NCBI GenBank assembly: GCA_965233585.1 | Contig: CBDDTI010000075.1 | Location: 1-39,591 of the forward strand | Reading direction: 5' to 3' | DNA from: a bacterium | GTDB lineage: Bacteria > SAR324 > NAC60-12 | DNA: 39,591 nt | Part shown: piece after piece, positions 409 through 38,356 of the stretch | Numbering within the stretch: position 1 is the stretch's first letter | Layout: each line of letters starts with the position of its first letter | The notes under the pieces: generated by a model | Told to the model about the DNA's origin: nothing | What the model saw: only the letters and a program-made list of their open reading frames with translations | Databases searched by the model: none | Translations under genes and position numbers: made by a program

Positions 409-2906
409 GAATTAAACTGGTTGCAGTAGGTGGTCATAGCCCGGAACCCTTTACACTGCCCGGTCATCCTATCGTTGCGGCCCCGGCGGCATTGCAGGGC
501 CGGCCTATCCGAGATCCTTTGCCCAACGATGTGGAGGCGAGGTCATGGGGTAGGTAGGTGGCCAGCAAGTCCAGGTGAATCTGCATTGATAATTCAGACT
601 CTACTCTAGTCTCTACACTCTACACTTACACTCTACATTGCACTGTAGATTCACAATGTAGACTTGTAATTGTAGGCTGTAGTAGACTCTGTAGACTCTA
701 GGCCCTCTAGAGTCTAGGACCCTAGACTCAGTGAAACTTGAAAATTTGAAACTTTGATTTGTTTCCCCAAATTTGTTTAGAAATTTTCAATTGAGCAATG
801 CGAACCGTGTTAGTTTCAATCATTCATTTGCATCCTTTGACCAAACTGACCCTCCAGAGTTCGCATGGTGAATGATTCTTGGGCGCCAGGCTGATCATCG
901 TGCGTCGGCTGCTGCTCCGTCCAACGCCAATTTTGCGGCAGATCGGGTCCAACCCATGGCCCAGGAATTTAGTTTAGTTTTGTTGAGTCTTGTTTTGTTA
1001 AGACAAAATTGCAAAAACTAAGTAGTTAAACACTGCTTAAACGACTTAACGGACTTAACGGGACTTAACGGACTTAACCGAACGGTTAGTTTAAATTTAA
1101 TTTTATTTTAAATTTTAAATTTTAAACTTTTTTAAAACTTTAAACTTTAAAAACTTTAAACTTTTAAATACTTTAAACTTTAAACTTTAAATTTTAAACT
1201 TTAAATTAAACTTTAAACTTTAAACCGTTTAAAGTTTAAACCTTTAACTTTAAACTTTAAACTTTAAACTTGAACTTTAAACTTTACTTTAAACTTTAAA
1301 CTTTAACTTTAAACTTTATAAACTTTAAATTTTAAACTTTTAAAATTTTAAATTATTAAACTTTAAACCATTATAGCTTTAAAATTAAAATTCAAAGTTT
1401 AAAAACTTTAAACTTAGACTAGACTTTAACTTTACCTTTAACTTGAAACTTTAAACTACTTTAAACTTTAAGGTTAATCGAAACTGCAAACTGTGATCTG
1501 TAAACTGTAAACACTGTAAACCGTAAAAACTAAAAACGTTAGATGTTAAACTTAAACAATCAAACCGTCTAATTTTTAAACAAACTTTAAATTTTAACTT
1601 TAAATTTAAATTATATTTGAAAACTTATCCCAACTTGTCATTAAAAATTTTTAAATCTACTACACAAATCAAAGAATTTAAAACTAAAATTTAGAAAATT
1701 TAAAACTTCAAAGTAAAACTTACCTATTACTAGATTACTGAAAATTAAAGTTCAAACCTGTTAGGCCTGTTAGGTTAAACTTTAAATTTTAAACTAACTT
1801 TAAACTTTAAATTTTAAACTTTAAAATTTAAACCGTTACTTTAAACTTGTAAAATCTTTAAAATTTAAAATTTAGAATTTAACAATTAAAACCGGTCAAA
1901 CCGGAAACTTTAAACAACTCTAGAAAATCAAAACTTAAATTTAAACTTAGACAAAAACTGTCAATTTGATTGATTCATGGTGAAGGTTCAGATTTATCAA
2001 TTGTTTATTTGTTCATGTTTTTGCCAAGTCATCCGTCCGCCTGCTTGGAGGATGGAAAAGGAGTCGGAGCAGGAAAAGGATATGGCAAGGCAGGGCCATG
2101 TCATGTTGAAAGAGTGTTTCTGACAGTTTCTGCAAACTTCTGGCAAGGTGTCATGTCAACAGTTAGACTGGCCATTTTTTTAACTTGAAGTTCCAACTGT
2201 TGAGAATTGATATGGTTTCTACAAGTTTCTACTTCACAGCAACATGTATATTACATTATGAATTATAATTATAATATATTATTATTACTACTTACTCTTA
2301 TATTATTATAATATGTACATATTTTTCCCATCTCTCCGTTTTGATTTTGAAAAGGCATGCCGCCTTATGATTGAGTATGGAGATTTCCAAATGGAGGCAG
2401 CGGCAGCTAGCTTCACATTTGTTCATGTCATGCACATTTAAACATAATCAGAACCAATTACATGACATGATGTTATCAAGTTGTTTGAAATTACATGAGT
2501 TACATGTTCTCTATTCAAGATTCAAAGCTGTCAACTTTGTCAACTTTGAAACGTGCACCGTGCATCAATGTTCTTTTCTAGTTTTCTCAAACTTTCCTCT
2601 CTGTTGTGCAGCTGATCGTTTCTGTTAGTTTTGATGTTTGATGTCTCGGATGTTTGGCAGATCCAATCTGACAGAGCTCTCATCCGCCATGCCATTCGTT
2701 CCCCTGCGCGAGCCTCACTTCGGCGTTGTTAACAGCTAGCAGTGTTTTCAGTTGCATTATGTTGCATTTGATTCATTTGATTATGGTTGTGCAGCATGGG
2801 TCGTCAAGATGCGATGTGGTGACAGTTTAGCCGGTCAGTCAGTCGTTCAAGGAAAGCAACGAAGATGCATACTTGTGAGGCAGCTGCTGGGCAGAGGGAA
2901 TCTTAA
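409..2906 (+). CDS. Probable 3' part of a spliced gene; Ala/Pro/Gly-rich protein of unknown function (5' end probably outside the window)
   Basis: In-frame exons 409-536 (GIKLVAVGGHSPEPFTLPGHPIVAAPAALQGRPIRDPLPNDVE), 890-964 (ADHRASAAAPSNANFAADRVQPMAQ), 2051-2089 (DGKGVGAGKGYGK) and 2880-2906 (AAAGQRES*). All have AG|G acceptors; donors are GC, GA, GC. The exons are GC-richer islands in AT-rich sequence. The terminal exon is uncertain. Confidence 0.5.
1040..1950 (+). repeat. Degenerate (CTTTAAA)n heptamer satellite, intronic
   Basis: Long runs such as actttaaactttaaactttaaa, with a CTGTAAA patch at ~1485-1525. Confidence 0.9.
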
Positions 2907-3446
2907 GAGCCTTGAGAGCTTGCATTCGGCTTTGATTAGATATGCAACATGTGACTGGAGTGATCTAAAAATACAGCAGTCAACCAGTAAACCAGTTAAA
3001 AACGGTAAGCTTTCAGTAACCGCCCAACTTCACTAAACAGTCAAACTTCGGAACCATTGGAATGGTCTTGTTTTGTTTGTAGTAGTTTTAAGTTCTGATT
3101 TGAAGTTTGCATTCTTTTCAGCTCTCGGTTCAGCGGTGGCGGCTTTTGGGCCAGCAGTGCCAAATTCCATGTCTCAGCCATTAGTCGTGGACTCTTGGTG
3201 TTGATGGCAGCTGATGCCAAACTGACTGTGTCAAACGCAAGCTGACACATTTTGATCACCTGTGCCAGCTTAAATGGTGTGACCCACTGCCACCGACCAT
3301 GTTTTCTGCTAGCAAACTAGTTGTAGTTTCAGTTCGGTTTAGTTTAGTTAGTTTAAGTTTTTAGTCTTTGTTCTTGATGAAACGGTTTTGGGCCATTTGG
3401 GGTTACTTGCACAAGCACAGCTAGCGATGACAACATTGATGCGGCG

Positions 3447-6400
3447 ATGTGCCGTGGTTGCAATGCAAAAAAGGTTCCTGATGAAGAGTGGATGATGAGA
3501 TATCGGATTGCTGTGGAGGAAAACTGTCATCGGATATCGTATACCCAAAACTTCCTAAACGGTTGATAATTTTTTGATAACTGAAAACTGAACGCAATGA
3601 ACTTGAATCCATGACCAATCAATGTACCATGATGATATGAAGCACAAGAGTCAAGAGGTTTTCTACTTCACTGAACTTACAACAGTGGGAATGTTGGTAC
3701 TGTATTTTAAATTGACCTCTTGAAGCTTGGGATGCTAACTTCGGTATCGTCATCCGGCTCGCTCCCGGCAGGACCCGCAGGTCTTCTGCTTCCGTTAAAG
3801 ATGTGGAGGCAGCGTCTCTTATGTTGACGCAAGTGAAGCGGCTGGCCGGAAACTTGTGTGAATTCACCACCACCGCCAGCGCCAAGAAGAAGCCGGTGAA
3901 TAGTAGGACCACAAGTTTGGTTCTGGCGAGGGCAGGCAGGGCGTTTAATTGCTGCTATTGCTATTGCATTAAAACTTCCTGAAATATTGAACTAGTTATA
4001 AGTTATAAGTTATAAATCAAGTTATAACTTACTTATGACTTAGACTTATACTACTTATTATACACTCACAATATATTGTAACGTAACTGTAATGTAACCC
4101 TGTGACTCTGACTCCGGCTATAGATACTCTAGACTCTAGACACTCTACTCCAGACGCTAGACTCTAGACACTCTAGACTAGACTAAACTAGCTGACAGAT
4201 AGACTACTGCAGAATATTGGGCGCGCAAGTGACCCGAGCCGCTTTGCCTGGGAATTTGAGGCAATGTCATTTCAAATTCAATGATACTGTTGTCGTCAGT
4301 CGTGCTACTGATTATCAATGAGTGGGGTGGGACTGGAGGCAAAGGCCGTCGCCAACTCCTACGGCGTGTGGACACAAGGCTCCAGACTGTAAGGCGGGTG
4401 AGTTGCAGATGTGTCCAACAAATTTAGCTTCCAACTTTTGAGCCAGCTAAACTTTAAGATTCCATTATTTTTTACTGACTTGCGTGTTATTGTTATTGTT
4501 TCAGCTTTGAATTAGAATTTGATGGTTTGTTTTGAGCCATTGGTGCCACACTGATATCACCGACGCAATGATATGAAATCAGTGACCTCAGCTGATATCA
4601 TGGATACCCAATTCGTTGATGTTCTCAGATGCAAAAGGTTCCAGAGTTACCATCAGTCATGTCATGCAATGAATTCTTTGCTGTTGAGTTCGGCCCAGGC
4701 AGAAGGTGAGGCTATACAACAAGAATCATGCGGTTCGGAGGAGTGATCTCATCAACGAAGATACCGAGAACTGGGGGGAGAAAAAACATGACAAAGTACG
4801 AGGTAAAGGTGGGAGCGGAAGTTGCCGATGGTTGGAAAAACACGGTTGGAGATGTTCAACTCCAAGTGGTTCCAAAGATGGAAGTTGAGCATTCTATTTA
4901 TTTTGTTTCGTTTCGTTATTCTGAATTCTGAGTGGTTACCGGGAATGTTTTTTTTAATCTTTTGAAAATTGAGTTCGATGCCCATGTGAGAGATTTCTGG
5001 TTGGCCATTGGCCTGCATCAAAACGGCAGGGAAGCACCGTGAGTGGACCTCAGCAGCAATCCTTCGAGTTGCGTTCCTCAGACTTGAATTTGAAGTTTGA
5101 AGTCTGGATATCGGCAATATTTAATTAAATTGGCTTGATCAGGAGGGTTTAATCCAGATTGGTTGCTGTACGTTTTCATTCTGATTGGCTGCTGCGCCCT
5201 AAAGATATGATATCCGTATCCCAGAAAAAGGCATCTGGAATCTTCATTGATATGAATTTGATTCTGATTTTAAATTGGTGTGCGCAAAGCACTGTGGGGG
5301 GGTCCTAAGCTGTGCAAAAAATTTTCAAGCAAGCACCTTGTTATTTGTGAATTGAAAAATATCCATCGCAACTCAGATGAGAAAGCCATGCCTCAGGCTT
5401 GGACGCGCCACGGACCAGGTGCTTCGATGGTCCAAGGGGCAACCAAGGCTGGCGAAATTGGCATCGAAGTCGCCATGCATGCCGCTCAACCAACAGCAGT
5501 TCATTTGAATGGTTCCAATTTCACTGTTCGATCTGTTCCAACAGTTCAAGCAGTTCAGCCGACGGTTAGAGTCATGAGTCATGAGTCATAAGGCTTAGTC
5601 TTAGTTATAGTTACTTAATTAATTAGTTAGTTAGTTAGTTAGCTAGTTAGTTAGCTAGTTGGTTAGTTAGTTAGTTAGTTAGGTGTATAGAGTGACAGTT
5701 ACTAAAATGCTAAAGTAGGCTATAGGTTTGTGTTGATTAAATTACTATTATTGACTATTGACTATGGACTATTGACTATTGACTATTGTGGACTATTAGT
5801 GACTATTGACTAGTAAGTATTATTATTATTATAGATTAGATTCGATTGATTAGATTAAATTAGATTCGATTAGATTATTAATGATTACTAATTGATAAAT
5901 AATATGGCTTGATTATGATTCATAATTAATAAAACAATAATTATATTTAAATTTGAATTCAAATTGAAATTTTAAATAACTATGCTATGACTATGACTAT
6001 GACTAAGACTATGACTAATGACTAGACTCGACTATAACATAACTACTAAATACAATGACAAGACAAGACAATACATATGTCGTGTTCCTATTGCAACCTA
6101 GGTTTTCGGCGAATGCTTTGGCGTTCTTCCTACGAAGTGGGACTTCGACCATTGCCCAAGCCTGATCCCCAGTATTGAGCGCCGAAAGCCTGTGGGAAGA
6201 ATCTAGAATCCAGCCATACCACAATATTGTAAGACTGCAAGACTGTACGACTCGTGACTGTACAATATTCAGTATTCACTATTCGGGAAAAACAAATTCG
6301 TTTCAATTTCAATCATTACATGAACCATGAATCAATCACCGCAATCACCCATTGTTCTTGAGCACAAAGCGCTGTTCACTGTGTTGCGCTGTTCGCTAAG

Positions 6401-9400
6401 CTGAAATCAGAAATTTGACTAATTTCTGCTCACTGCTCACCGTTCTCTAGTTGCGACTGTTTGGTGCGGTCAGATCTGTTGCTGCTTGAGGCCCAAAGTG
6501 CTTTGTGCAGTTTGTACCTGGAAAAACAGCAATCTGCCTTCGTTGCCATGGCCCAGGGCACAGATGTTCGTGCCCTGGCCCTCCACATTGAATACGACGA
6601 GACCGGACAAAAACTCCGACTCAAAAGGAGTTGGACACGTGACCACCAAACAACGCTTTCAGTCTTGGTTTCTTTATTGCAACAGCCCAGCAACGGTCTA
6701 GGCCAGTTCCGGCAAGTTTCCTTCCTGTTACTGTTAATGACTTAATGATCACTAAACCGTTTGACTGACTGACTTATTTGCTTGCTACTCATTTGATACT
6801 TTGATCATCACCCAATGACTGACGACTCATTGCTGAGAGCACTGATTACCCACTCATTGATGACTAGATTTCTGTAGCCACAGGCCACAGTCGCTGTAGT
6901 CACTGCAGTCAGTCTCTGCTGTCAAGGTTTCAAGAACCACGGCGTTCGTTGCTGGAAGCAACGGTATCATGTCACGAGCTGTCAGGGCCTCAGTCTTTTT
7001 TCGCTGGATAAACCACAGCAGCAATAACGTAACATCATGAATCACAGCTATAACTCATAAGAGACTTGACCAAACATAATCAAAGGTTCATGATATTGCG
7101 TGATGAGACTGTAAGAGGAACTAGCAGAAGGCGATTGTATGTTGGGAAGATGGTGTGCTTAGCTGAGATCATCAATGCACCTGCCGTGCTGTGGCGGCAG
7201 ACGGCCCTTGCGCTTTGGCGCGGCCTAGTTGCCAAACAGATGGTTCACCCTTTCAGACCTGGCCTCAGGCCCCAATGGTGTGATGTCAGTCCTTGTCTTT
7301 CGAACTCACATCATTCACAGTTGTTTCGTTTGAAAAATGAAAAATGTGTTCTTTTTCTAAACAAACATGATGAGGCCTCTCTGGAGCGGCCCCTTTGGTA
7401 CTTTTGCAGTTCATCTGTGACAATGCTGCGGCCAACGGCCTTATGTTCCGGCGGGTGGTGCAAACCTGCCCCAAAAACGTGCTGTCAGCTTTTCAAAAGT
7501 GCCTCATGTCCGATCCTCAGTTCATTTGATTCACTGATTCAGATTCATATGATTTGTTAGTAAATAGTAAATAAGTAAATGGAATAGGGAAGTTTTTTTT
7601 GCAGACCCCGAACTCCCTTACCAATGCCCTAAATTTTGCCCGGCCCTAAATAGTGGGTTTGACGGTTTGACCAACCCTTGGGGCCATTTGAGCTGATTTT
7701 GATTGATGAGCAAAGGCATCAGGCAAATCTCTGCAGCGAAATTGGTTGGAAAACCTTGGGTTGCCTACCAGACATGCCGCGGCCTGATATTGACTTGTGC
7801 TGTGGTGCAGAGTCCAGAGTTTTGAGATGTTCAATGTTGAATATTGACTTTGTTTTGCCGTTTTTTTTTGAAAATTCAAAACGCTAAAACACTGTACTAG
7901 TTACTAGATGTTGACATTGTTTTACCTCACTTTTATTTATTACTTAATTACTCTTATATTATTGTTGACTTAGCTTACTGAACTTAAACTTAGTTTTTAA
8001 AGTTAAGTTTAAAAAGTTTTAAGTTTTAAGTCTTAATTTTAAGTTTTAAGTTTTGAGTCATTTAAGTCATTTAAGTTTAAAAATTAAATTAAAAGGATTT
8101 TTTTTTTAAAAAAATAAAGTATTTGAATCTTAAATTTCATTTATTTAAAATCTTAAAACTACTTACTTTCAGATGATTCATTTAAAACTTAAAAGTTTGA
8201 AACTTTTAAGTTTAAAGTTTAAAGAAGTTTAAAATTTAAAGTTTAAAACTTTAAAGTTTAAAGTTTAAGTTTAAAGTTTAAAGTTTAAATTTAAAGTTTA
8301 AAGATTTTAATTTTTTTAAAGTTTAAAATTTTTAACGTTTAGTTTAATTTAAAAGTTGTTTAAAGTTTAAAGTTTTTAAAGTCTTATTTTTTTAAAGTTT
8401 AAAGTAGGTGTTTAAAGAGTTTAAGATTTTATTTCAAATTTTTAAAGTTTAATTTTACAAAGTTAACGTTTTTAAAGTTTAAAGTTTAAGTCGTTTTCAA
8501 TGTTTCCTTAAAGTTTAAAGTTTATAAAGTTTAAATTTTAAAGTTTAAAATTTAAAGGTTAAAGTTAAAGTTTAAAGTTTAAAGTTTAAGCTGAAAGTTC
8601 GAATTTAAAGTTATTTAACACATTTAAAGTGTTAAACTTTAAAGTTAAAGTCTTTAAAATTTAAGTTTACAATTTAAACTTTTAAATGTTAAACAGTTTA
8701 AACTTTTAAACAGGTTTAAAGTTTAAAATTTTAAGTTTGTTTAACGTTTTGCAGTTAAAAAAAAGGACATTTAATAAAGTTTAAAGTTTTAATTTTAAAG
8801 TTTAAATTTTAAAGTTTAAGTTTAAAATTTAAAAGTTTAAAGTCTAGAGTCTAGAGTCTAAAATTCAACATTAAAATTAAAAGTTACAGTTCAAGTTCAA
8901 ATTTAACAGTTAAAGTTAAAGTTAAAGTTCAAAATTAAAAAAATGTGAGTTTAAGTTTAAGTTTAAAGTTGTTTGAAAATAATCTAACTGAATTGTAAAC
9001 TTTGAGTGTTACTGTTAAATAACACTGTTAAAGTTAAGTTAGGTGTGCTAAACAATCAGAGGTTTCAATTCGTTGAAAGCTTTGTAAGGTTGAAGCCAGT
9101 TTTGCAATTTTAAACTTCAAAATTCTAAAGGCGTTCAAAATAAAAAGTTTAAAGTTTAAAGTTTAAAATGTAGTAAGTTTAAAGTTAAAGTTTAAAAAAT
9201 TAAAGTTGTTTAACATTTTTAAAAGAGTAAGCTTGCAGTTTAGTTCGAAGTTTAAAGTTTAACGTTTAAAACTTTAAGTAAGTTCATGTTTTTTTTATTG
9301 TTTCACGTTTAGCGTTTAAGTAAGTTAAAATTCAAAACAGTGTTTAAAATCAAAAGTAAGTTGTGTTTTAAAGCTAAACGGCTAAATATTTAAAGTTTTT

Positions 9401-12400
9401 AAAATTTAAAAGTTTAAAGTTTAAAGTTTTTAAAGTGTAGAGAGTTTTGAAAATGGAGTTTTGAAATTTGAGTAGTTTAGAAAGTTTAGAGTCTTGAGTC
9501 TAGAGTATCATCCTTTGAACCAGTTTTAAAAAAATAAAGTTCGATTCATTTTCTTTGAAAGTTTAAAATGTTTGAAGCACGCTTGCAAATTTAACATGAA
9601 TTTTAAACTAAACACTTTAACTGACTTTAACTTTAACTTTAACCTTTAAACTTTAACAGCTTTAACAAATATCATTCAACTTTAAATTTTAAAGGTGTTT
9701 TGCACACACTAGGTTATGACTATGATGTATTTGATATCAATTATTTATATTATTAAGATTAAATATTAATAATGTAATCAACATCAAAATCACAATATTG
9801 TTTTTTAAAATTATATCATATTTCGTCTTTACTTAAAAAATAATGATACATTTTTTTTAAGGTTGGATTGATTACGTTTCATTTTATGTTCGCATTGTCA
9901 TCCCGTAGGCATGGCTGCTTTGCACCTGGTTTAGTCAAGCATTCGCTGAGGTTCAACTGCAGCTCGCTTCTTTCACAGGGGTCTATGTTCTTTGAATTGA
10001 TTCAGAAGATCCGGGCGATCCTGACTAACACGCTCATTGTGAAATACGACCCGCCAGCAGCTCAGTTCCCATTGGCCAGTGGCTTTTGTTAGTATTGTTA
10101 GACTCTCCCAAGGCCAGAGCAAGCCAATTTGGATTTTGCCCGAAGCCTGCTGGAGGAGGCCCACCGTAGAAGCACGGCACCAAGAATTCAGGACCACTGC
10201 ATATTATAATGCAAATTGGAAGACTGCGCAAGGTTCTCTAGACTTTGAAAGATTGTAGACTAGTTTCTGGCTCTAGCCCCTACCTCTAGGCTCGAGACGC
10301 CCTAGACTCTAGACTCTAGACACTACCCTGGGAGAGTTTCAATCGTGAAGAACTTGATGAGCCATTCATGAGTCATGAATGGCTTACTTAGGTCCGCATC
10401 CCATCTGACGAGATTGAAGAGCAGCACACAGATGTCCACAATGACCGAACGCACGCAGCTGAAATGCTTCTTCTCATGGCGAACGGAGATCCTCACCACT
10501 GCCTTTGTTTTCACTTTTGGGTTGGTGGTGCGCGTGCTGGGGTTTGCTTGTCACTGTCACTGTTGTGGCTACTGGTACTGATACTGCTGTTGCTGTTTAC
10601 TTAGTTTGTTAACCATGTTCTGTCATCTGTCAACATATGATTTAAATTTTAATAATTTAAATTTAAATTTAAATAGTGTTTCTGCGGATGAGGATTGGAC
10701 CAGCAAGACCCCTGTACACCATTGCAAGCTGGGATGCTGTCTGAATCGGACAGAAAGCGGCACTGGCCTCAGCGCATTGGATGATGAATGCTTTTCTTTT
10801 CTTCAACGGCTTTGCGGCAATCCTGATTTTCTTGGATTAAGTCAAGTCTGATTAAGTCAGTAATGATTAAGGACTAAGACTAAGACTCGAACTTAAATTT
10901 CAATTTTAAGCCAATTTGAATTAAATTAACCTCTTCAGGACTTTAGAGAGTCTAGACTCTAGACTCAAGACTCAGACTGGCGACATCTGGGGACTATTCA
11001 TGTTACAATGTTACAACTCAGTCCCCAGCTCCAAGTGTAGAGTCAGTACAGGCAGTATAGTAGGTTTGATTTTGAGTCAGGATTCACTTCAAAATTCATA
11101 TTACAACAGATCCATGCAGATGAAATGTTTGAAGCTGAAGCTGGAACTTGAACTTGAACTTGATTTGACAAAACCACAAATCAACATACCAGCAGGAGTT
11201 TGAAACTAGTTTTAGTCTAAGTCTAAAGTTTTAGTTTCAGGATTTGCTTGAAGTTGAGGCCACAAGTTTTTTGCCGCTTTTTTGGACTACGCGCAGTGGG
11301 CTGAGACGATTCTGTTTTTGGTTTGATTTGACAAACTGTCACAAATATAATATATGATCCATTCGGATTAATTCCAGTGCTGATGCTGCAGCCTACGTAC
11401 AAGTTACCAGGATGCTTGAGACTTGAAATTTGAAAGAGGTTTGAAGTTTGAAGCATCATTATTGACAATTTACTGTCCTTCATTCACTAACGGCCACACT
11501 AATAACTAACAACAATGGTAATTGACTTATTTTGCATTAGGATTTGAAGAGACACCCATCAAGCCTCTGTGACAGCCAGAGTGATCCTGTTGTTGCCAAG
11601 GCTTGCAAAGAGGCCATGCATCCCCAACATTTCAAGGTGGCTGTCCTGCGGTGAGAACGCACGCTTTTTCATGTCTGGACCTGAGCACTCTTTGATTTTT
11701 CTTGTCCAGGCTTACATTGGAATCGTTGACCGTGAAAACGAATACCTCCAATGGTCCAATACAGTAACAGTAACAGTAACAGTGTAACAGTACACATGTT
11801 GTACAAGTTTTGCTATTACATTACATTGTTTAGTGTTCATGGTTGAAAGAAAGTTAAGGGACGATGCCATTTTGTCACTTGAGGCTGGGTTTTGCTCTGC
11901 ACAACGTTCTTGGGCAAGCTTGGTTCGAAGCTCATGGCTGGACGTGCTTATCATTGGACTGGATTGAATCCATTGAACATTGGCTGTGGTGACTGTGGTG
12001 TATGTAGGCAGCTGTAAGCACTGTGTACACTTGGAACGTGTAACACTGACACTGTAACGCTGTAAGACTTGTATACTTGTTACTTGATTATAATACTTGT
12101 ATTGTATTGTATTGTATTGAGTATTGACATTGTATTGATTGTATTGATTTTTACTTTAGTTTAGTTTAGGTTTAGTCAGTCAGTGATATTATTATATTAT
12201 AATTTATTAATATTATATAATAATTTAATAATATAATATAATTATAATGATTAATTAATTATATGAATTATAATTAAATTATATGAATTATATGTATACT
12301 GTATACTATATACGTATACTGTATAATGTATACATTATCATTACATAATATAAGTTAAGGCAGAGTTAAGATAAGATTCTCATATTATAATATGATATAT

Positions 12401-15400
12401 TTAATTTTATATATATATATATTATTATTATAGACAGTAAGTTAGTATAGTATAATATAGATAGTATAGTAACTATTAAAAATATTAAAATATAATTATA
12501 ATTTATTGTTATTATTATATAGTAGTCTTAGCAGTATATAGAGTCTATAGGGCATATATTTTATTTATTATATAGCAATATATAGTATAGGGCCTAGGGT
12601 AATATAGTATAGTATAATAGTATATAGTATATAGTAATAGTATATAGTATATAGCATATAGTATAGTATATACTATACTATACTATAGTAATAGTATAAT
12701 ATAATCAAGTAATATAGAATAGTATAGTACAGTAAGTATATATTTATATATTGATAGTATATATAGTATACGTATAAATAATATATTAATTATATATAGT
12801 ATATGTAATATTTAGAGTCTAGAGTCTAGATTATATATTTACTATACTATACTATACTACTATACTATATAAAAATATATATATAATATATAGTGTATAT
12901 ATAGTCTATATATAGTGTATAGTGTATGTTAAGTATACAATATATATAGTATAGTATATAGTATACAGTGTACAGTATACAGTATACAGTAGTCACTAGT
13001 CAGTAGTTTGGTAAATCGAAAAGACACAGTAAGCAAGCATATATTTCCTTTTGTATAGTTTCAATGTATCATCAATAGCAAATAGTATATGAGTAATATA
13101 ATATATTAATATTATATAGTATATAGTATATAGTATACAGTATACAGTATATAGTATATAGTATATAGTATATAATATAATATATAGTATATAGTATATA
13201 TAGTATATAGTAATATAGTATATAGTTATATATTATATAGTTAAACAATAGTATATTAGTATATAGTAGTATATAGTAGTATTACTTAGTATAGTATATA
13301 GTCTAGTAGTCTAGTATATAATAATAATATAGTAACAGTAAAGTATATTACACAAATATTGAACATTGAATATTGTTGTTTGTAAGTTATATTTTTGTAA
13401 ATATCAGTAGCACATGGCATATAGTATGTACATAGTAGGACATAGTTCTGGGCTGTACCTGTATACTGCATTATTTGCTTGCTGAGTTTCCAACTTATCA
13501 CTAAGCAGTATTGTATTGTGACATAGTATTGTGAAGATGGACCTTCAGGGTCCGGCTAACATTGCTCTCAGCTTTTGAGGCAGCTTTTGTTCAAGCAGGC
13601 GCTTTCTCATTTGCTTCAGTGCATCTGATCACTGCCTGACAACCTGCAATTTTGCGAACAATTTGATTCACTTCAGTGAATATTGACACGGAAACTCAAA
13701 TCACAAGTCCGAATGTCTTAAAGTCTTAAATCTTAAGTCTTAAATCACCACTGACCAGAGTTTCCTTTGCAGGGGCCACAGTGGCATTCTGAAGGTGCAA
13801 GTGGCCTAGCAGAGCAACAATTGGTTCCACTGCAATCATTGCTCTTTGATGATCACTTTGGTGATGCATTCCAGAGAGTGCAATGGGTGCGAGCAAAGAA
13901 AGTCACTGCCTGGATGGAAAAGCCCGAGTGTTTGCCTGTGCTGATTTCTTCTTCCCTGGTGTTCTCCCCGCTCGAGCGCTTGATGCCGGGTCCTTGGCAG
14001 CCTCTGCACCTGTGCAGTGCAGTCAACCCTTTGTTTGGCATCCCACATTATTTTGCTGTTTTTTATCAATGATGCTGACACCGACGCTGGTCATTGATGG
14101 CTTTGTAGGCAGGTTTATATAATAGGCATCACAGGCTAGTCACTGTCAATATGGATTACCACCGAGTGTCACGACTGTATCCGGCTGACAGGTTTCAGCT
14201 CCTGCGAGAGATGAAGAGACGAGAATGGATGGATGGAACTCAGCCATACGACTGCTTGCCTGCTGTGAGAATGACTTCGCCCCACAAGTTCCTAATTTTG
14301 AATTTGCTGGTTTTGGAATTGTGGCGTGCTAGCTCTTGTGCTCCCAGTGACTCAGGGTTGCTATTTTCACGTGTGAACCGTGAACGGCAGTGTGGCGGGC
14401 CATTTGTGATTTAGTCAGTCCTGTGTTTACTTGTAGCATTGAGGTCACTTGCAGCCATTGCCTTGAAGGAATATCTTGCGATGGCCAGCGGAGACACTCC
14501 TTTGTGCCTGAGAGGAGGGGGATGCTCCGCTCTTCTTTGTGACTTAAATTGACGTCAAAGAACTTTAATATAAAGTTAAAGTAACTACTCATTACTTAGT
14601 TATACTTAGCCTGCCATGAAGGATTCGACGATGTGTCGATGCATTTGGCCAACTTTGTGCTCTTCTCCTGCATTTGCCAAGTTTGGCAAAGGCTCTACAG
14701 AGAGTTTCAGGCCTGCCACATGTCACATACACATGATGCCATTCAGTCGTATTCCCAAGCACAAATCAATCAATGTTCACCTGGTGATGCGGATTGTCTC
14801 AGGTGTGGCCATACAGGTTGGGGAAGCTCCTGGACCCAGACGTGTCTTTTGAGCTGAAGGTTATTCTGGCCAGAGAGTTCATGGCTGCCCGAGACTGTTG
14901 TTGCGACAGGGGATTCTCAATTCCTTTGCAAAAATTCATGAAGGACTGAGGCTGAGGTTTGCAGTGTTTGTGGCTGCGGCTGCGGCTATATTAATTACTA
15001 GTACTGCTAATGCTCGCAGCACAGGACAACTCGATGATACATTGAATTCTTTGAACTTTGAATCATTCATTCATTGAATCTTTCTTCAAACTTCAGCCTT
15101 TAGTCAAACTTTAGTCACTTTAGTCTTAAGTTGTAATGATCATTGTCGTTGCTCAGGAGCACAACTACGGACCTGAAGCTTTGCTTCCTGGGGGGCCGCT
15201 TTGCCATATGGCCATGATCTTGGGCCCTGTGTTCTTTTAGCTTGTGGTGCTTGTGAGCATGTGTATCTTTCCTACTTCAATATCCCGTCCGGAAAGCCCT
15301 TATAGCCCTTAAGGTTGCACTGCTGATGATGAGGAAGTTGGTGAATGCGCAGATCGAATGCAATTTTTCACGGGCCGCTACACAGCGCTCGCCCAGTGCC

Positions 15401-18400
15401 CAGTTCGAATTCACGAAGTAGCTCCAAAATGTAGCCATTGCAAATTTCAATGGACTGACATCGCCACATCGCGACACCAAGGGTAACACAAGGTCGAGGA
15501 CATGGCATCACCACTATGGTCCTAGCCTGACACCTTTGCCTTGCCTGTGTTGTTTCATAGGGAAAGTGAAAGCAAAGCATGAGAGATGCGCGTCGCAACT
15601 CTAACATAAACTCTTGAATCAATTGAAGTCGAATCAATCATTTTTCGGGCGCTGCTTTTTGATATGAATGAGGCTGCGAAATTCCTGCTCAGCGAACTTC
15701 AGAAAGAGCATCATCGGGCCCAGCTGGCAGCAGAAGCTGCGAAGGCTGAACAGGACTGCCAACTTGGCAACAGTGAGAATGCTGCTGCCAAGTCATACAA
15801 TGGCTTCACGTTGTTTCTGAAAGATCGGCTCCAAACAATGGCGCCTGGATCGCATTATTTATTGATTGCTCTCACTCTTGGCTTGGTTGTGATACAGAGA
15901 CCTGTGCAGGAGTTATAAATTATAAGTTTAGGAGCTAGTATAACTTACTAAGTATAACTTACTAAGAATATAAATAAAATATAAATATACTATTTTAATT
16001 TTAGTTATAATATAATTTATAACGATATAATAAGAACATAATATAATGTCTATAAGCAATGAATTATAACAATATATAATAACTATTTATAATTATAATT
16101 ATACATTATTCATTATACTATATTCTACTATATACTATATATTACATTCATTATACAATAATAATTGTTGAATAATTTAAATATAAATAGTTTTATAATA
16201 TTATATTTTACTAATATATTATAATATTATATCAAATATAAATAATATATTATAATTATAAAATATAAATAAATAATAACTATTTTTTGATTACATACAT
16301 ATATTATATCAATAATTAATGATGAATAGTCAATATATTATATATATAATATAAATTATAAATATATAAATAATATATAATTTATACAATATTAATATTA
16401 TTAATATATAACATATTATATAATATTATATATTCATATAATCATATATAGTATATTATAGTATATGTATACTGTATAATGATTTATAATATATAAGTTA
16501 AATTTATATATTTATATTATATAATTATAATTTATAATAATATATTTCGATATACTATTTTTATATATGATGCTATTTATACAAATATATTTATTAACCT
16601 GTAATCTATCAGACTATGAGATAAATGTTTAACTCACAGATCATAATCATTGACTCATTGGGGTTGCGGCAGACACAGTGCACATAGGCCCTCGAAATGC
16701 TCCTGACTTTGATTCAGGTATCATACCCTGGAGAGAACCGGCAGGACACCATTTCCAGGACATGGTCTGAGGCATCACAGCAGTGGTCCGCAAGCAGCCA
16801 TGAATTCAAACAGGAGAGAACATCAATGTAATTCGAGCATGTTGTTCCTCGGGAAAACTTATGAGAATGTGGCATGCTGTAGTAACTTTAAATGCGTCTT
16901 GACTTTTCAGGTGTTCCACTGCATGTTCCCACTCTGAAGGTGAGGAAACATGGGCCAGCAAACCCAAGATACCAAATGTTACTGTTATTGTCGGGGATGT
17001 ATGTCAAGAAAACATATGTGTTTCATATGTAATATTTTTATATTTATGATGTATAGTTTTTAGTTTTTAGGGTCTTGAGTCAGAAAAGTATCAGTATCAT
17101 ATCGTCAGCGTCATCGAATCATAACCTTTAGGCAACTTAGACTTAGAACCCCAAGACTAATTGTAAACAACGCTTTTACAACTTTTGCAGTATACAAGTT
17201 TACAAGTTTACAGTGTATACAGTGTATACAGTGTTTACTGTTTACAGTGTACACTTGTACAGTTTACAGTTTGCAGTGCTACAGTGTACAGTGTTTACAG
17301 TTACAGTTAAAGTTAAAGTTTAAAGTTTCAAGTTTACAGAGTTTACAGTTTACAGTTTATAGTTTACAGTTAAAGTTTACAGTGTACAGTGTACAGTTTA
17401 AAGTTAAAGTTTAAAAGTTAAAAGTTTAAAGTTTACCAGTTTATAGTTTACAGTGAATACATGACATGTTTCCTGTTTCCATGGCTTTCGGTCAGCAGGA
17501 GCAGTCCCGCGCAGCCAAACAGCACAACTCACTGGTCAAGCGAAAGTCCTCCGAGGATTTGGCCGCCGTCGAGAAACATGACAATCCTGATTCCAGCTTG
17601 GTGCCTCATTTGGGCAAATCAGTCTTTGTTGACTTCTCTGGAATTGGAGACAAGCACTACGCAATCGCTGAGTCGATTTTGGAAGCTGAACGTGCAAAAC
17701 ACCCTCATTGGATGCAGCAAAAACATGCACAGTTTGAAAAGGAACACGGCCAACTGCAGCAAGAGGATGACGATTCCGGGGCAGAGGATCAGTCAGATGA
17801 TGAAATGCTCGGCCAATGTCCCATTGATTTGTGCGCCAGGGATGCTGAGAGGCTCGATGATTTTGAGACCTGGTTTGAACAGATCAAGAGTGTTTTGAGG
17901 ATTTTCAGAAACTCTCGAAAGACAAAAGGGTTTGCCCCTGATCATCCCATGATCACTATCAGTGCAACCAGCGATGTGAATGAACTCCAGGGTGGAGACC
18001 TTGTCTACCTTTTTGGAAAAGTGGGATTTTCACCCTTCGATGCAACTATGGTGAAACTCAAGTTGGAGAGGTTGGGCACAGTTGCTCCACGTGCTTTGGT
18101 GGCGAAAATGCATGCTACAGATGAAGGCTTGCCGGATATCATCTCCCTGGACCTTTTTCTCAAGTACTGCTGTGAGACATTCGATTGTGAAGAGCAGCAG
18201 GTTCAGATCCTTCAGTACTGTGGGGGCAGGTTTGGCGAATTGGACATTTTGTCCATGGAAAGTGTTGAGCAGGCTTCTCAGAGAACTGCCTCTGAACCTG
18301 CGACTGTAGATGAAGATGTGCGAGAAGATGACCGAGCTGTGAAAAACCGATCAGACTTGCTCAAGAAAGTCCTTGATGCGGGGAAGGACAAGCAGAAGCA

Positions 18401-20290
18401 GGCCAAGAAACCAAAAGGTGCTCCGAAACCAAAGACGAAAGGAGTCAAGAAAAAAACCAAGGACGAATCACGGAAGTCCAAACAGTCGCATTGCGCAGGG
18501 CAGGATCCTGGTCCCGCCGACACTCCAGATGTTGGCGATGTCAGAGCAGAAGATCCTGATGAACCTGGTGTGGCAGGAGCCATTCGCGATACAATCGAAA
18601 AGGAGTGGGCCAGTGCTTTTGATTCAGACTTGCCACAGGCCCCGGCCCCGTCACAAGCAGCGAGTTCCAGCTCAAGCTCCGCAACGTCCAATCACCCCTC
18701 TGCCGGCCCGTCTCCATCACCTTCACCTGCCCAGCCTGGGCAGCCTGGCCCTGACAATGTGCTGCCATGGAAGAACCCTCAAGGGTATTGCTTTCTCCCC
18801 AAGGATGGGAAGCAGATGGGTGTCTCTTTGGGTGCAGGGCTCAGATATTAATTAAGTCACAATGAGAATCAAATTCAAGTGACGTTATTCCTTTGCTGCC
18901 GTTACACCCTCATAATCTGACAACATTTCTGAAATTTGACTTGAAATTACATCAGTCTAGTTCAGGTCATTCCAGAAAACGTGTGATCTAAAATTCAAAA
19001 GGCAAAGGTGAATGACAAAACAGTTTTCTGTGAACTAGTGCAGATGCACTGCAGGCCGGATTACTGAAATCCGAATTGGATGTCCAGATCACGCGATCTC
19101 CATCCGGTGTGGTCACTGGTGCGAAAATCTGGCCGGGTCAGCCCAACTATAATAAATATGATAATTATCAAGACATATCAAGACACTTTCATTACCATTA
19201 GAAACTTTCACTTTAGACTTTGTTTATACTTTATTTTATTATACACAGTCACTTTACTTTACTTTACTCAACGCAGAATTTTACAGAGTGGAAGTGTAAA
19301 CTTGACACTAGTCACTAGTAAACTTTGCATTTCATTTCATTTAATTTAATCATAATTGATCAGTTCACTTTAACTCAATTCTTAACTTTAACTGAAACTG
19401 TACAGTTACAGTTACAGTCACAGTGCAGTTTGGTTTTCTTTTCCAATTTCCAGTTTCCAGTATACTTAGAATCCTGGTCACCATCACCCCATGCATAGCT
19501 GTGCCTTACATTCAAACTGATAGGATCTTTTCAATTTTCAAAGTTTTTTTCTGGCTAGCACATTGTTTGATTATAGTAGTATTCAGCGTTGTAACTTGTA
19601 TCTGTAAGGCTTGCTAGAATTCTTAGACTTCACCTCACTGGGCTGTGGCGCTGACATCTCTTGATTTTGAAATCAAGTTGAATGAGTCGAATCGAGTACC
19701 TATAGTGGCTTTATAGAGTATAATTGTTCTGATTTCCATGGAACAAAACAATGCATGATTGGACCATGGACTCGGGACAAATCATGGCCCCATCATCCAA
19801 GGCGTGCATCGCGATTGCAAGTGTTTGGTCGCAGTGAAGCGACTCGGTGTCAATGCGGAACCCCGCATGTTACAGTGGCTTGCGGCCGGAGTACGCTGCC
19901 CTGGTGGCCGAGATGGCGGTCCTGCTCACAAAGAGACGCCTCATTGGCTGCAACTTATTCCGTTCCATTTCATACCATGTCTTTTCTAATCTGCAATATT
20001 CCCAAACTGGAAGTGAAATTGGATTGCAAGCCATAGCCGCATAGCTGCATTGCCAAAGCAATGAGCAGTGCTGTATGTATGCATGCCTGTATGCAGGGTT
20101 ATCATTTCCTCCCGGCTTACTTTGCTTTGAAACCATCAGACTTTGTGCTTGTGCCGGTCTCATTACAGTTTTGGCAATCACAAACTAAACATGGCAGTGC
20201 TTGTATTGTTTCTGTCAGCGATGGTCACTAGCAACACTAAATCAAATCAAATCTCTTTCAAGGTGGAAAGCATACTTGGGCTTGGCTTGA
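3447..20290 (+). CDS. Multi-exon hAT-like DDE transposase (RNase H fold) with HMG-box-like and Cys/His-rich accessory segments; >30 exons, ~1,400 aa by manual estimate
   Basis: Spliced translation gives motifs in hAT order: HIEYDET (D 6596-6598), FICDNAAAN (D 7419-7421), CLM|H (CxxH split by intron 7508-7715), PNISRW (RW 11635-11640) and AQIECNFSR (E 15356-15358). Most junctions join in phase with GT/GC/GA donors and AG|G acceptors. The 5' start and a few micro-exons are uncertain. Confidence 0.8.
5595..6030. repeat. Compound microsatellite: (TAGT)n, (ACTATTG)n, (TAGAT)n, (ACTATG)n
   Basis: Directly visible tandem runs inside a transposase intron. Confidence 0.85.
6491..7776 (+). CDS. Transposase exons carrying the first and second catalytic Asp and the CxxH motif
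   Basis: Exons start at 6491 (AQSALCSLYLEKQQSAFVAMAQGTDVRALALHIEYDETGQKLRLK), 6927 (VSRTTAFVAGSNGIMSRAV), ~7086 (FMILRDETV...EIINAPAVLWRQTALALWRGL), 7375 (LSGAAPLVLLQFICDNAAANGLMFRRVVQTCPKNVLSAFQKCL) and 7716 (MHQANLCSEIGWKTLGCLPD). Confidence 0.8.
7980..9690 (-). repeat. Degenerate (TTTAAAG)n satellite switching to (CTTTAA[A])n at its 3' end
   Basis: gtttaaagtttaaag runs from ~7990 to 9570, TCTAGAG patches at ~8841-8860 and ~9485-9505, and C-strand units from ~9600. Confidence 0.9.
9951..11937 (+). CDS. Transposase insertion-domain exons (NGDW-x6-HHC-x2-GCC cluster and RW motif)
   Basis: Exons read FNCSSLLSQGSMFFELIQKIRAILTNTLIVKYDP / PEQANLDFARSLLEE / VRIPSDEIEEQHTDVHNDRTHAAEMLLLMANG / DWTSKTPVHHCKLGCCLNRTES (from 10693) / HKFFAAFLDY / LAKRPCIPNISRWLSCGENARFF / LGFALHNVLGQAWFEAH. 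Confidence 0.72.
12170..13350. repeat. Very AT-rich (TATATAG)n/(TATAG)n/(TATACAG)n satellite
   Basis: Runs of tagtatatagtatatag and tatacagtatacag. Confidence 0.9.
13773..15518 (+). CDS. Transposase exons leading to the catalytic Glu
   Basis: Exons read ...DAFQRVQWVRAKKVTAWMEKPECLPVLISSSLVFSPLERLM / ...FDDVSMHLANFVLFSCICQVWQRLYREFQ / VWPYRLGKLLDPDVSFELKVILAREFMAARDCCCDRGFSIPLQKFMK (14803-14943) / EHNYGPEALLPGG / VALLMMRKLVNAQIECNFSRAATQR (from 15314). IECNFS matches the hAT ExxFS motif. Confidence 0.75.
15673..17545 (+). CDS. HMG-box-like segment of the transposase gene
   Basis: Exons 15673-15840, 16718-16813 and 17499 onward splice in phase 0 to KSYNGFTLFLKDRLQTM|VSYPGENRQDTISRTWSEASQQWSASSHEFKQ|EQSRAAKQHN. 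This has the HMG-box pattern (aromatic-x-L-F ... W ... K). Recognised by eye only. Confidence 0.55.
15920..16620. repeat. Near-pure A/T low-complexity tract (TA/TAA/TTA)
   Basis: Directly visible; fills intron 15841-16717. Confidence 0.9.
17190..17455 (-). repeat. (GTTTACA)n/(GTGTACA)n/(GTTTAAA)n heptamer satellite
   Basis: Runs of agtttacagtttacag and agtgtacagtgtacag. Confidence 0.85.
17499..18831 (+). CDS. Large exon of the transposase gene (acidic, Lys-rich and Pro/Ser-rich regions)
   Basis: Lies within the 461-aa ORF 17466-18851. Acceptor CAG|GAG at 17498/17499, GT donor at 18832. Contains a basic NLS-like run (KQKQAKKPKGAPKPKTKGVKKKTK). Confidence 0.85.
19055..20290 (+). CDS. C-terminal exons with a putative C-x2-H-x2-C...W...H zinc-binding motif
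   Basis: 19055-19111 (GRITEIRIGCPDHAISIRC) joins 19802 onward (GVHRDCKCLVAVKRLGVNAEPRMLQWLAAGVRCPGGRDGGPAHKE), then probable last exon 20263-20290 (WKAYLGLA*). Confidence 0.65.
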
Positions 20291-20844
20291 AGATGCTGCT
20301 GATGTCATTGTGCAGCCTTGCCTTGCAGCCTCCAGCTTTCTGCTACCAAGCAGCCAACAAATCAGTTTCATCTTCTTGTCTTGCTGAGAGATGAAAGCCT
20401 TTGCTGCATTTGCTCTTGATTTGTTCAAACATTTTGGTCGCTCAACCGTTCGGCATCAGATGGGTGACCCATGCCTTTGCACTTGAGATCAGTTGTGAGA
20501 TGAGATGAGTAGTGAATGATTGATTAACGATGAATCAATGATGAATGCTGACTGCTGAATGTGATTCAGTTTGCATCCTCCGTTTGCGGTTTGTGTGTCA
20601 CATGTCAATGTGATTTCTGCCATCATCAGGGAGCCGCTTTTGACTCGAAAGAGGGGGATCGGATTGCATTTGTCAGTTTCCATCACTTGACTTAGCAGCA
20701 ATTGCTAAAATTCGTGGCTTATGCAAACTGCTACCGGTTGTCAACTGTTTGAAAGTTTCAATTTCCCCCGCCCTGCTCTATCTGACTTCGCTTTGTACGC
20801 GCACCGCACCTAGCTATTTTGCCTGGGCCACCAGTGAGCTTGCC

Positions 20845-37226: not shown

Positions 37227-38356
37227 CTGAAGCTCAGGTCAGTCAGGATTGTCCCTGACACATGGTGGGGTGCGGCCCAAGGTCTTCGGATTTGGGCTTT
37301 GGCTGCAGCTGCAGCGAGTCTATATCGGGGTTTGCAAAGGCTACTGCCTTCCTATACAATACCAATTACCAATGGTTGGTACTCTGTAGTCTCACATTTC
37401 AACAGTTGCCATTGCTTGGCCTGTGACTGTGTTTGGCATCGTGCAATCTTTCTGTTTCTTTAACAGTAACATGAAAAATAGTTGCAATCAAAGCTTCAAG
37501 TCCTTGAATCCAACGTTGTGGACAGATGGAGAAATTTATCATTTGAATCCAGGCCATAGCAGTCGGCTTGTAGACTTGTGTCATGCACTGCGTGGCCCCG
37601 TGGCTGTATTTAGCAGAAGTCAGCGCTGCAGGCATTCCACAGGCGCGACCAGGATGTAAGGTGCACTGCATCATGGCGCATTTGCCCCATTGCTCTTATT
37701 TATTTCCGGTCCCGTTTCTCAGAGGGCTTGCACATTTACTGAGGGCTTGCCCAGAAAATTCACAAGTTGCTTAGGTGTTGAGCCAAACATTGTAATGTCA
37801 ATGCACCAGATCTCAGATCTGATTTTCCTGGCGCCTGTCAATAAGTTCAGCTTTCAATCGCGCTTGGCGGCGCTGGGACAACTTTTTCCTTCGCTGTGAA
37901 CTGTGGACCAGCTGGGGGAGCCGGTCCATTTTTGCATCGCGTTGGATTGAGCGACAGAAAACAACCCAGCTAGCATGTGATAAAAATCTTGCTGGTGCGA
38001 TGTTTGGTTCGGTTCATACAGTGGTTCATATCATTACATTGCATTGCCTGTCAGTCAGACAAGTCAGCACCTTCTTTTTCTTTCTATTCCAAACCACCCA
38101 GTCAGCCAGCTGATTGACACCTGCTCAAATGTTTTTGGACGACATGAGAGACACGACAGTGATAGTGATGATGTCGACTATTCAAGCCTCTATCAAGCCA
38201 CTAATCTAATCACTAATCACTAAGGTCGCTATGTCACATGCAGGAGATCCAACAGCCATGTGATCCAATTGCCATCAACCAACAAACAGTTCCACTTGCT
38301 GTGTAGGAAAACAGGGAACATGAAACAAATCTCATCCTTCCACGTTCCTAGTTGCG

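Follow-up and report, generated by a model that had tools for sequence, protein, structure and literature searches.

Can a contig filed under a bacterium conceal a many-exon transposase gene? The window analysed here, 39,591 nt in length, is the entire contig C75 of GCA_965233585.1, a 12.0-Mb, 747-contig bin presented as a SAR324 metagenome-assembled genome (MAG). An initial annotation proposed that positions 3447-20290 encode a hAT-like DDE transposase of >30 exons and ~1,400 amino acids (aa), either an active element or a domesticated recombinase. Comparison with a related locus indicates that this region does carry one long, heavily intronised gene, with at least 26 exons, a span of at least 14.5 kb, and at least 1,239 residues. 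Differences between the two loci point to purifying selection on its sequence. The interpretation favoured here, with somewhat more conviction than doubt, is domestication: a hAT-type DDE transposase that its host took over as a gene of its own.

The first question is whether the gene exists as a unit. An alignment (A1) of a 464-aa open reading frame (ORF) from the window with 11 homologs was used to scan JGI metagenome contigs, and yielded two relatives: L003 (16.1 kb of a 20.9-kb contig) and L002 (3.0 kb). The alignment-based scan of genome contigs gave no match, nor did single-protein scans of either metagenome or genome contigs. In tblastn searches with ORFs of the window + strand, 28 conserved blocks join window 5395-20979 to L003 609-13564 in strictly collinear order; the L003 locus is about half as long as that of the window, with shorter introns. 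Between adjacent blocks, every frame-keeping combination of a GT, GC, or GA donor with an AG acceptor was listed, and a pair was retained when the intron phase agreed between the two species and the peptides across the junction were most alike. One junction (the exon 13 donor) was placed by hand under the same rule.

All 25 junctions have a same-phase, stop-free solution in both species; one of these lacked an L003 solution at the first limits, and was solved once the limits were widened. The full model comprises 26 exons, 5397-19938 on the + strand, with 1,239 codons and no stops, and it includes the 464-aa ORF. Exons 1-24 (5395-16825) contribute 754 stop-free codons in the window and 774 codons in L003, the latter with a single stop at the very end. 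Between the two, 535 of 751 aligned residues are identical (71%), a share biased upward by the choice of exon limits for maximal similarity. The exons, with their conserved blocks and amino acid identities relative to L003, are as follows.

5397..5480, + strand: exon 1; block 5395-5493 against L003 609-713, 63%, E 4e-7
6102..6159, + strand: exon 2; block 6100-6162 against L003 857-919, 90%
6491..6667, + strand: exon 3, YDET, Asp codon 6596; 68% against L003 1006-1200, E 2e-24
6927..6980, + strand: exon 4; block 6924-6983, 70%; GT donors and AG/G acceptors in both species
7168..7261, + strand: exon 5; block 7162-7266, 77%, E 9e-15
7375..7519, + strand: exon 6, ICDNAAAN (Asp codon 7419) and Cys; 78%, E 5e-25; alternative donor after 7507
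7716..7811, + strand: exon 7, starting His-x-x-Asn-Leu; block 7687-7797, 59%, E 9e-13
9951..10064, + strand: exon 8; block 9934-10089, 58%, E 1e-15; preceded by a 2,139-base heptamer-repeat intron
10113..10191, + strand: exon 9; block 10105-10191, 59%; the junction before it (J7) has the lowest score and is the weakest
10413..10487, + strand: exon 10, boundaries uncertain; block 10401-10523, 51%
10693..10759, + strand: exon 11, conserved His-His-Cys...Cys-Cys cluster; block 10657-10794, 48%, E 2e-11
11259..11304, + strand: exon 12; block 11258-11314, 68%
11601..11672, + strand: exon 13, SRWLSCGENARFFM ('RW' motif, Trp codon 11638); block 11596-11736, 64%, E 1e-16
11884..11917, + strand: exon 14; block 11882-11923, 93%
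13773..13984, + strand: exon 15; block 13767-13994, 68%, E 4e-31
14192..14287, + strand: exon 16; block 14190-14297, 75%
14444..14514, + strand: exon 17; block 14433-14519, 59%
14622..14710, + strand: exon 18; block 14609-14713, 69%
14803..14943, + strand: exon 19; block 14797-14946, 72%, E 3e-24
15157..15210, + strand: exon 20; block 15151-15216, 73%
15314..15402, + strand: exon 21, IECNFS, Glu codon 15356; block 15311-15406, 75%, E 8e-13; IECNFA in L003
15482..15518, + strand: exon 22; block 15471-15518, 88%
15673..15840, + strand: exon 23; block 15658-15846; also in 8 short database ORFs (P0015, P0017-P0023)
16718..16813, + strand: exon 24; 59% with L003, 65% with L002; AG/GA donor at the same place in three loci
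17499..18831, + strand: exon 25, most of the 464-aa ORF; 13 homologs; CAG/GAG acceptor in the window, L003, and L002
19802..19938, + strand: exon 26, 3' limit open; 57% against L003 12302-12439, E 5e-16

(The slash marks the splice site.) Exon 1 opens with a phase-2 AG/G acceptor, whose position agrees between the two species; further exons must therefore lie upstream, and the true 5' end is upstream of 5397. L003 offers only AT-rich intron ahead of exon 1, with nothing comparable, and the + strand ORFs of 3447-5396 have no Pfam match. Of the extent first proposed, then, 5397-19938 is modelled, and 3447-5396 and 19939-20290 lie outside the comparative model. Likewise, the notion of one long many-exon gene survives at no fewer than 26 exons and 1,239 aa; the larger figures of >30 exons and ~1,400 aa were not confirmed. 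Codon-usage scoring, tried on exons and frames, gave no separation.

Does the 464-aa ORF (17457-18848) really belong to this gene? Past the exon 24 donor, the frame stops after 5 codons in the window, 1 in L003, and >12 in L002. A pyrimidine tract and CAG/GAG stand ahead of the 464-aa frame in all three loci, exactly where conservation starts, and in L003 the 20 upstream codons displayed contain no in-frame ATG. Because the donor and acceptor sites are common to three loci and L003 lacks an upstream ATG, the ORF is assigned to exon 25. The splice sites also led to rejection of the ORF as a separate gene, the form in which one eukprot model has it (single exon, 430 aa). The GT donor after 18831, matched in L003, joins in phase to the AG/G acceptor of exon 26. 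No homologs of the ORF were found among proteins of 813-2320 aa.

Exon 23 has counterparts among short database ORFs. A HMMER search with the frame 15610-15915 against 1.84 billion representatives returned 12 proteins, nine of them short ORFs (the window's own P0014 and its relatives P0015 and P0017-P0023) that have one exon-sized core in common. The other three are unrelated; among them, P0016 (2,644 aa) was set aside as a spurious match to a bacterial repeat protein.

In whose genome does the gene reside? Contig C75 is eukaryotic, Symbiodiniaceae-like, and mis-binned in the SAR324 MAG. Stop-free frames of at least 150 aa cover only 15% of it. The 464-aa ORF has 13 database homologs, and two of these bear names of eukprot gene models (Skav226245 and s158_g24.t1) that we take to be from Symbiodiniaceae. 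Splice sites agree: over 23 window junctions, donors are GT in 9, GC in 9, and GA in 5 (14 of 23 thus GC or GA), compared with 10, 11, and 2 in L003; and the base directly after the acceptor is G at 21 junctions in the window and 22 in L003, out of 23 in each case. This pattern matches published Symbiodiniaceae annotations, in which GC/GA-AG introns amount to 25-74% (PMC7789003, as given in its Table 1). The dinoflagellate source assumed in the initial annotation is thereby upheld. Coral host DNA, at first suspected from the G+C content of 38.6%, was dropped in view of the eukprot-named homologs and the splice-site pattern. A search of the bin for the dinoflagellate spliced-leader motif gave 0 matches and no relic.

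Among sequencing runs, each of the DNA-type sets (four coded organisms and one coral metagenome) holds 81-98% of sampled words of 10300-20290, and six coral metatranscriptome runs hold 7-48%. The best of the latter (X15, 0.48) is uninformative on splicing, because modelled exons make up only ~28% of this interval. Low long-ORF cover extends to 662 of the 747 bin contigs (7.3 Mb), and a large share of the bin may be eukaryotic, although its contamination is given as 2%. A species-representative 'bacterial' genome contains a 39.6-kb eukaryotic contig, a matter of concern to all users of that MAG.

The contig is also rich in repeats. Introns and spacers, AT-rich stretches among them, are packed with degenerate heptamer microsatellites that run in either orientation (TTTAAAC, AAAGTTT, TATAGTA, GTTTACA). 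A 345-base unit occurs in two copies at 95% identity (38893-39580), within an open frame (38324-39589) that reaches past the contig end.

1107-1471, 8192-8970, 12608-13302, 17233-17454, 23060-23201, 30086-30315, 33867-34070, and others: heptamer-repeat stretches

Is the gene, then, a mobile element or a resident? hAT mobile elements have terminal inverted repeats, 8-bp target duplications, and multiple copies. No paralog was found in the 12-Mb bin, which holds part of the eukaryote's genome: tblastn gave 0 non-self matches among 147 rows, and only 2 of 42 rows fell outside the contig when the spliced model was the query, both at E>1. A search with the YDET frame found only one protein cluster per relative. 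Flanking inverted 13-mers, in the first 40 of 277 inspected, are heptamer microsatellites, and terminal inverted repeats were not seen among them. Window-L003 differences fall at codon positions 1, 2, and 3 in the numbers 179, 118, and 369. The Nei-Gojobori method, applied to 751 codons, gives pN 0.183, pS 0.677, and dN/dS 0.119 (bootstrap 0.073-0.163), a ratio biased downward by the same choice of exon limits and computed with a dS of 1.75 that is near saturation, both of which detract from it.

An active autonomous hAT-like transposon adapted to dinoflagellate splicing would suit the intact and conserved state of the three acidic residues described below. Such an element, however, would hardly occupy the same locus, with the same neighbours, in a species at only 71% protein identity, nor keep 25 of 25 intron positions; and it sits badly with the absence of paralogs from the bin, with the microsatellite nature of the flanking 13-mers inspected (40 of 277), and with a dN/dS of 0.12 between the orthologs. 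This alternative can be given very little credence. The collinear flanks, common intron positions, and dN/dS instead describe a single-copy ortholog at a conserved position. Thus, of the two options originally offered, the domesticated gene fits far better than the active element, because of conserved neighbours, a dN/dS of 0.12, the lack of paralogs in the bin, and the lack of terminal inverted repeats among the 13-mers inspected.

What suggests a transposase in the first place? The five motif strings lie where they were first reported, on the + strand and in stop-free frames: YDET at 6593 (Asp codon 6596); ICDNAAAN at 7413 (Asp codon 7419); CLM at 7500; SRW at 11632; and IECNFS at 15353 (Glu codon 15356). 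All four exons that bear them fall within window-L003 conserved blocks, in the same order. The three acidic residues become D84, D172, and E635 of the model; at the sequence level, all are conserved in L003, and D84 is conserved also in P0027 and P0028. These last two proteins, along with the window's own type (97%), are the three obtained from 23 candidates in the YDET-frame search. Both keep exon 3 (75% and 68%, respectively), with conservation confined to a ~60-residue core around the Asp, which is invariant in their alignment (A3).

The strings follow the hAT order, D...D...H..NL...RW.S...E..FS, and the ortholog keeps them, apart from an A in place of the last S. The first Asp comes after a hydrophobic stretch; the second (D-N-A-x-x-N) is 88 residues further on; and, counted from the second Asp, H-x-x-N-L lies at +34, R-W-L-S at about +205, and E-x-x-F-S at about +463, all within the first ~640 modelled residues. 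S-R-W-L-S (11632-11646) is part of the 14-residue stretch SRWLSCGENARFFM, identical in L003, and matches the conserved Trp of the insertion domain; by position, this Trp would be equivalent to Hermes W319. The D-D-E core, spread over at least 19 exons (3-21), would be predicted to adopt an RNase H fold that gathers the three acidic residues in one site.

Might a protein of 1,239 residues contain these motifs by chance? A lineage-specific dinoflagellate gene without transposase ancestry would require just that. Each pattern occurs once in the model: D[NRGS][AG]..N at 172, H..NL at 206, RW.S at 376, and E..FS at 635. Singly, they arise in 3.3%, 8.1%, 7.4%, and 12.9% of composition-preserving shuffles, respectively, but the four in order arose in 0 of 100,000, with patterns that played no part in building the gene model, although they express a hAT consensus and were written after the sequence had been seen. 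Moreover, D-N-A-x-x-N, R-W-L-S-x-G, and the hydrophobic stretch before E..FS extend the resemblance past the bare residues. Pfam-verified hAT C-terminal fragments on other contigs of the bin have a hydrophobic stretch, a ~7-residue loop, and E-R-S-F-S, the same layout as here.

Nonetheless, a series of observations weighs against the hAT reading and the gene model beneath it. The model and its junctions are predictions from cross-species sequence comparison. The intron 10065-10112 is only 48 bases long in the window versus 137 in L003, and is either unusually short or a sign that the junction is wrong. The L003 copy of exon 25 (10001-11332) has one in-frame stop, within its Lys-rich low-complexity part; an error, an additional intron, or decay in that taxon could each account for it. 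L003 has E..FA where the window has E..FS, and the ~600 residues that follow the Glu are unlike the architecture of hAT enzymes.

The remaining points come from searches for known domains. Pfam, run on 133 + strand stop-to-stop frames of at least 35 aa (2371-21502), found no family above its cut-off and no transposase-related family at E<=1; 82 further window frames likewise gave none, so that the whole 39.6-kb window yielded no Pfam domain. When the bin was searched in six frames for PF05699, PF14372, and PF14291, none had a match on C75 at E<=10, whereas PF05699 and PF14291 did match exon-sized pieces on C660, C294, and C689 (for PF05699, pieces of 38 to 39 positions on C660, at 24.5 bits, and on C294). 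In scans of single exons, the hAT dimerisation domain PF05699 was absent at E<=1 from the ORF that contains IECNFS. PDB profile searches with the two Asp exons returned 0 and 2 matches, the latter unrelated, and protein atlas searches with single exons returned nothing usable. A BED-like C-x2-C...H-x3-5-[HC] pattern was absent from stop-free + frames of 1500-5500, where an intron-split finger is possible.

The absence of any Pfam, PDB, or atlas match for an exon is what a lineage-specific gene would predict, and a window without Pfam domains is expected for orphan-rich dinoflagellate genomes. That explanation gains further from the detection of true hAT fragments elsewhere in the bin, from the doubtful CxxH (see below), from the unconserved S of E..FS, and from the un-hAT-like region after the Glu. 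Set against the shuffle result, it is a doubtful but serious proposal. Membership in the hAT superfamily, proposed at the outset, has the ordered D, D, H, RW, and E on its side, but no profile recognises a hAT domain in any exon. The gene is not a proven hAT member, because the hAT dimerisation domain was tested for and went undetected.

Ordinary hAT remnants (PF05699 and PF14291 pieces) do occur in the eukaryotic fraction of the bin, along with a split HMG box, located on C377. An HMG-box reading of exons 23-25 was considered and abandoned: PF00505 had no match on C75 at E<=10, in a search that did find the split box.

C660:6945-7064, C294:8076-8198, C689:8233-8442, and C377:4494-5293: Pfam-detectable hAT and HMG pieces

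The Cys-His motif demands separate treatment. In hAT enzymes, C/DxxH follows shortly after the second Asp (PMC4763223 and PMC9587614), and the initial annotation saw a CxxH split by an intron. Cys and His do lie on adjacent exons, and an AG/G acceptor stands immediately 5' of the exon 7 His codon in both species. However, C-L-M/H arises only with a GT donor after 7507. The 12 bases 7507-7519 differ from L003 at three positions, all synonymous third positions, and similarity ends directly after them. The synonymous-only differences of 7508-7519 therefore favour the GT/GC donor that follows 7519, which makes C-x6-H a more probable spacing than CxxH, a further departure from the hAT pattern. Since each of the two exon 6 donors keeps the phase, they may be used alternatively.

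C/DxxH is, moreover, common to five superfamilies (PMC9587614), which raises the question of whether a different DDE ancestor was captured: another C/DxxH superfamily (Kolobok, P, MuDR, Dada) or some other RNase H-like nuclease. Several of these superfamilies have an insertion domain that separates strand 5 from helix 4 (PMC8230255), and the His-His-Cys...Cys-Cys cluster of exon 11 lies between the His and the Glu, where, according to PMC9587614, nearly all Kolobok enzymes have a zinc finger. The undetected hAT C-terminal domain would also find an explanation. Yet R-W-x-S and E-x-x-F-S, which are hAT marks, are both present, and the single-ORF Pfam-wide scan found no P or MULE families. Such an origin is decidedly unlikely, and a hAT-type ancestor remains preferred.

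What lies beyond the putative catalytic core? Residues 120-290 of exon 25 (17814-18326) are confidently predicted by AF2 to form a conserved alpha/beta domain (pLDDT 78.3, pTM 0.75; two of five models agree) with one long helix and a mixed sheet. Compared with PDB, this model gave 0 Foldseek matches at E<=0.001 and no convincing match with VIA-align; this indicates neither a new nor a known fold.

Further downstream, in the intron after the long exon, a stretch of ~80 bases is conserved among window 19048-19125, L003 11837-11914, and L002 2663-2731. Every one of its three reading frames is matched in the two related loci, and L003 has a stop there; the stretch looks like a conserved non-coding element, not an exon. 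Past the gene, blocks 20833-20979 and 24030-24164 are also collinear and conserved in L003; the first, in which a Met is placed alike in the two species, may begin the next gene of a same-strand array.

Together, these results provide a concrete hypothesis for the history of the locus. Conservation between the two species establishes the reality of the gene, its exon-intron structure, the selection on it, its neighbours, and its motifs; descent from a hAT transposase is what we infer from them. An ancestral hAT-type DDE transposase would have been captured by its host, retaining the three acidic residues, and would have gained a ~600-residue C-terminal extension that includes the domain of unassigned fold. 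The product would be a single-copy nuclear gene of a Symbiodiniaceae-like dinoflagellate, spliced with GT, GC, and GA donors and AG/G acceptors. By analogy with Kat1-type domesticated hAT enzymes, its protein may function in DNA binding and possibly cutting. That it is a catalytically competent Symbiodiniaceae hAT-like recombinase, a conserved host gene fused to a domain of non-PDB fold, that makes programmed DNA breaks or rearrangements is a tentative and, taken whole, rather unlikely proposition.

Its implications nevertheless invite attention. Domesticated DDE transposases that keep their active sites drive V(D)J recombination, ciliate DNA elimination, and yeast mating-type switching; RAG1, PiggyMac, and Kat1 are domesticated transposases that make programmed DNA breaks or rearrangements. 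Dinoflagellate chromosomes and gene arrays, for their part, are highly unusual. A gene that is conserved, under selection, and still in possession of its D-D-E string would be a concrete candidate for programmed rearrangement in coral symbionts. In the parts of the literature available, no domesticated hAT-type gene was found reported for dinoflagellates; if true, the present case would place a domesticated transposase in a lineage without any described. It is also a gene of ~33-codon exons, with GC and GA donors, that ORF finders and Pfam entirely missed.

How does it compare with known systems? The mobile hAT elements Hermes, Ac, and Buster have the same order of D, D, H, W, and E and, by their consensus, the strings D-N-A-x-x-N, H-x-x-N-L, R-W-L-S, and E-x-x-F-S. 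These elements (PMC3942097) encode ~600-800 aa with few introns, have terminal inverted repeats, and occur in many copies. The present gene, in contrast, is single-copy and has neighbours that are conserved; it encodes no fewer than 1,239 aa in 26 or more exons, and neither PF05699 nor PF14291 (DUF4371) was detected in it.

Domesticated hAT genes of plants and vertebrates include DAYSLEEPER/SLEEPER and ZBED (PMC3499209, PMC3606216). DAYSLEEPER, as the gene described here probably also is, is a transposase-derived host gene under purifying selection, with a Ka/Ks of 0.28 (PMC3499209) versus 0.12. In SLEEPERs, the BED finger and the hAT dimerisation domain persist, and the residues that transposition requires are missing (PMC3499209). 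Here the situation is reversed: finger and dimerisation domain are undetected, and the acidic triad is kept.

The closest parallel may be Kat1 of Kluyveromyces lactis, a domesticated hAT transposase that produces hairpin-capped breaks for mating-type switching, and whose residues D310, D377, C402/H405, W576, and E895 are listed in PMC4763223. Kat1 can be recognised as hAT by alignment, and a BED finger as well as a true CxxH are present in it; the present gene differs in its probable C-x6-H, its at least 25 introns, its ~600 residues after the Glu, and its lack of a detected BED finger or profile match. Both, however, are host genes and not mobile elements, and both keep the D, D, E triad, with a long insertion that parts the second Asp from the Glu. 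Their spacing is also similar: relative to the second Asp, the Trp and Glu lie at +199 and +518 in Kat1 and at +205 and +463 here, and in each the Cys/His pair falls 25-34 residues past that Asp.

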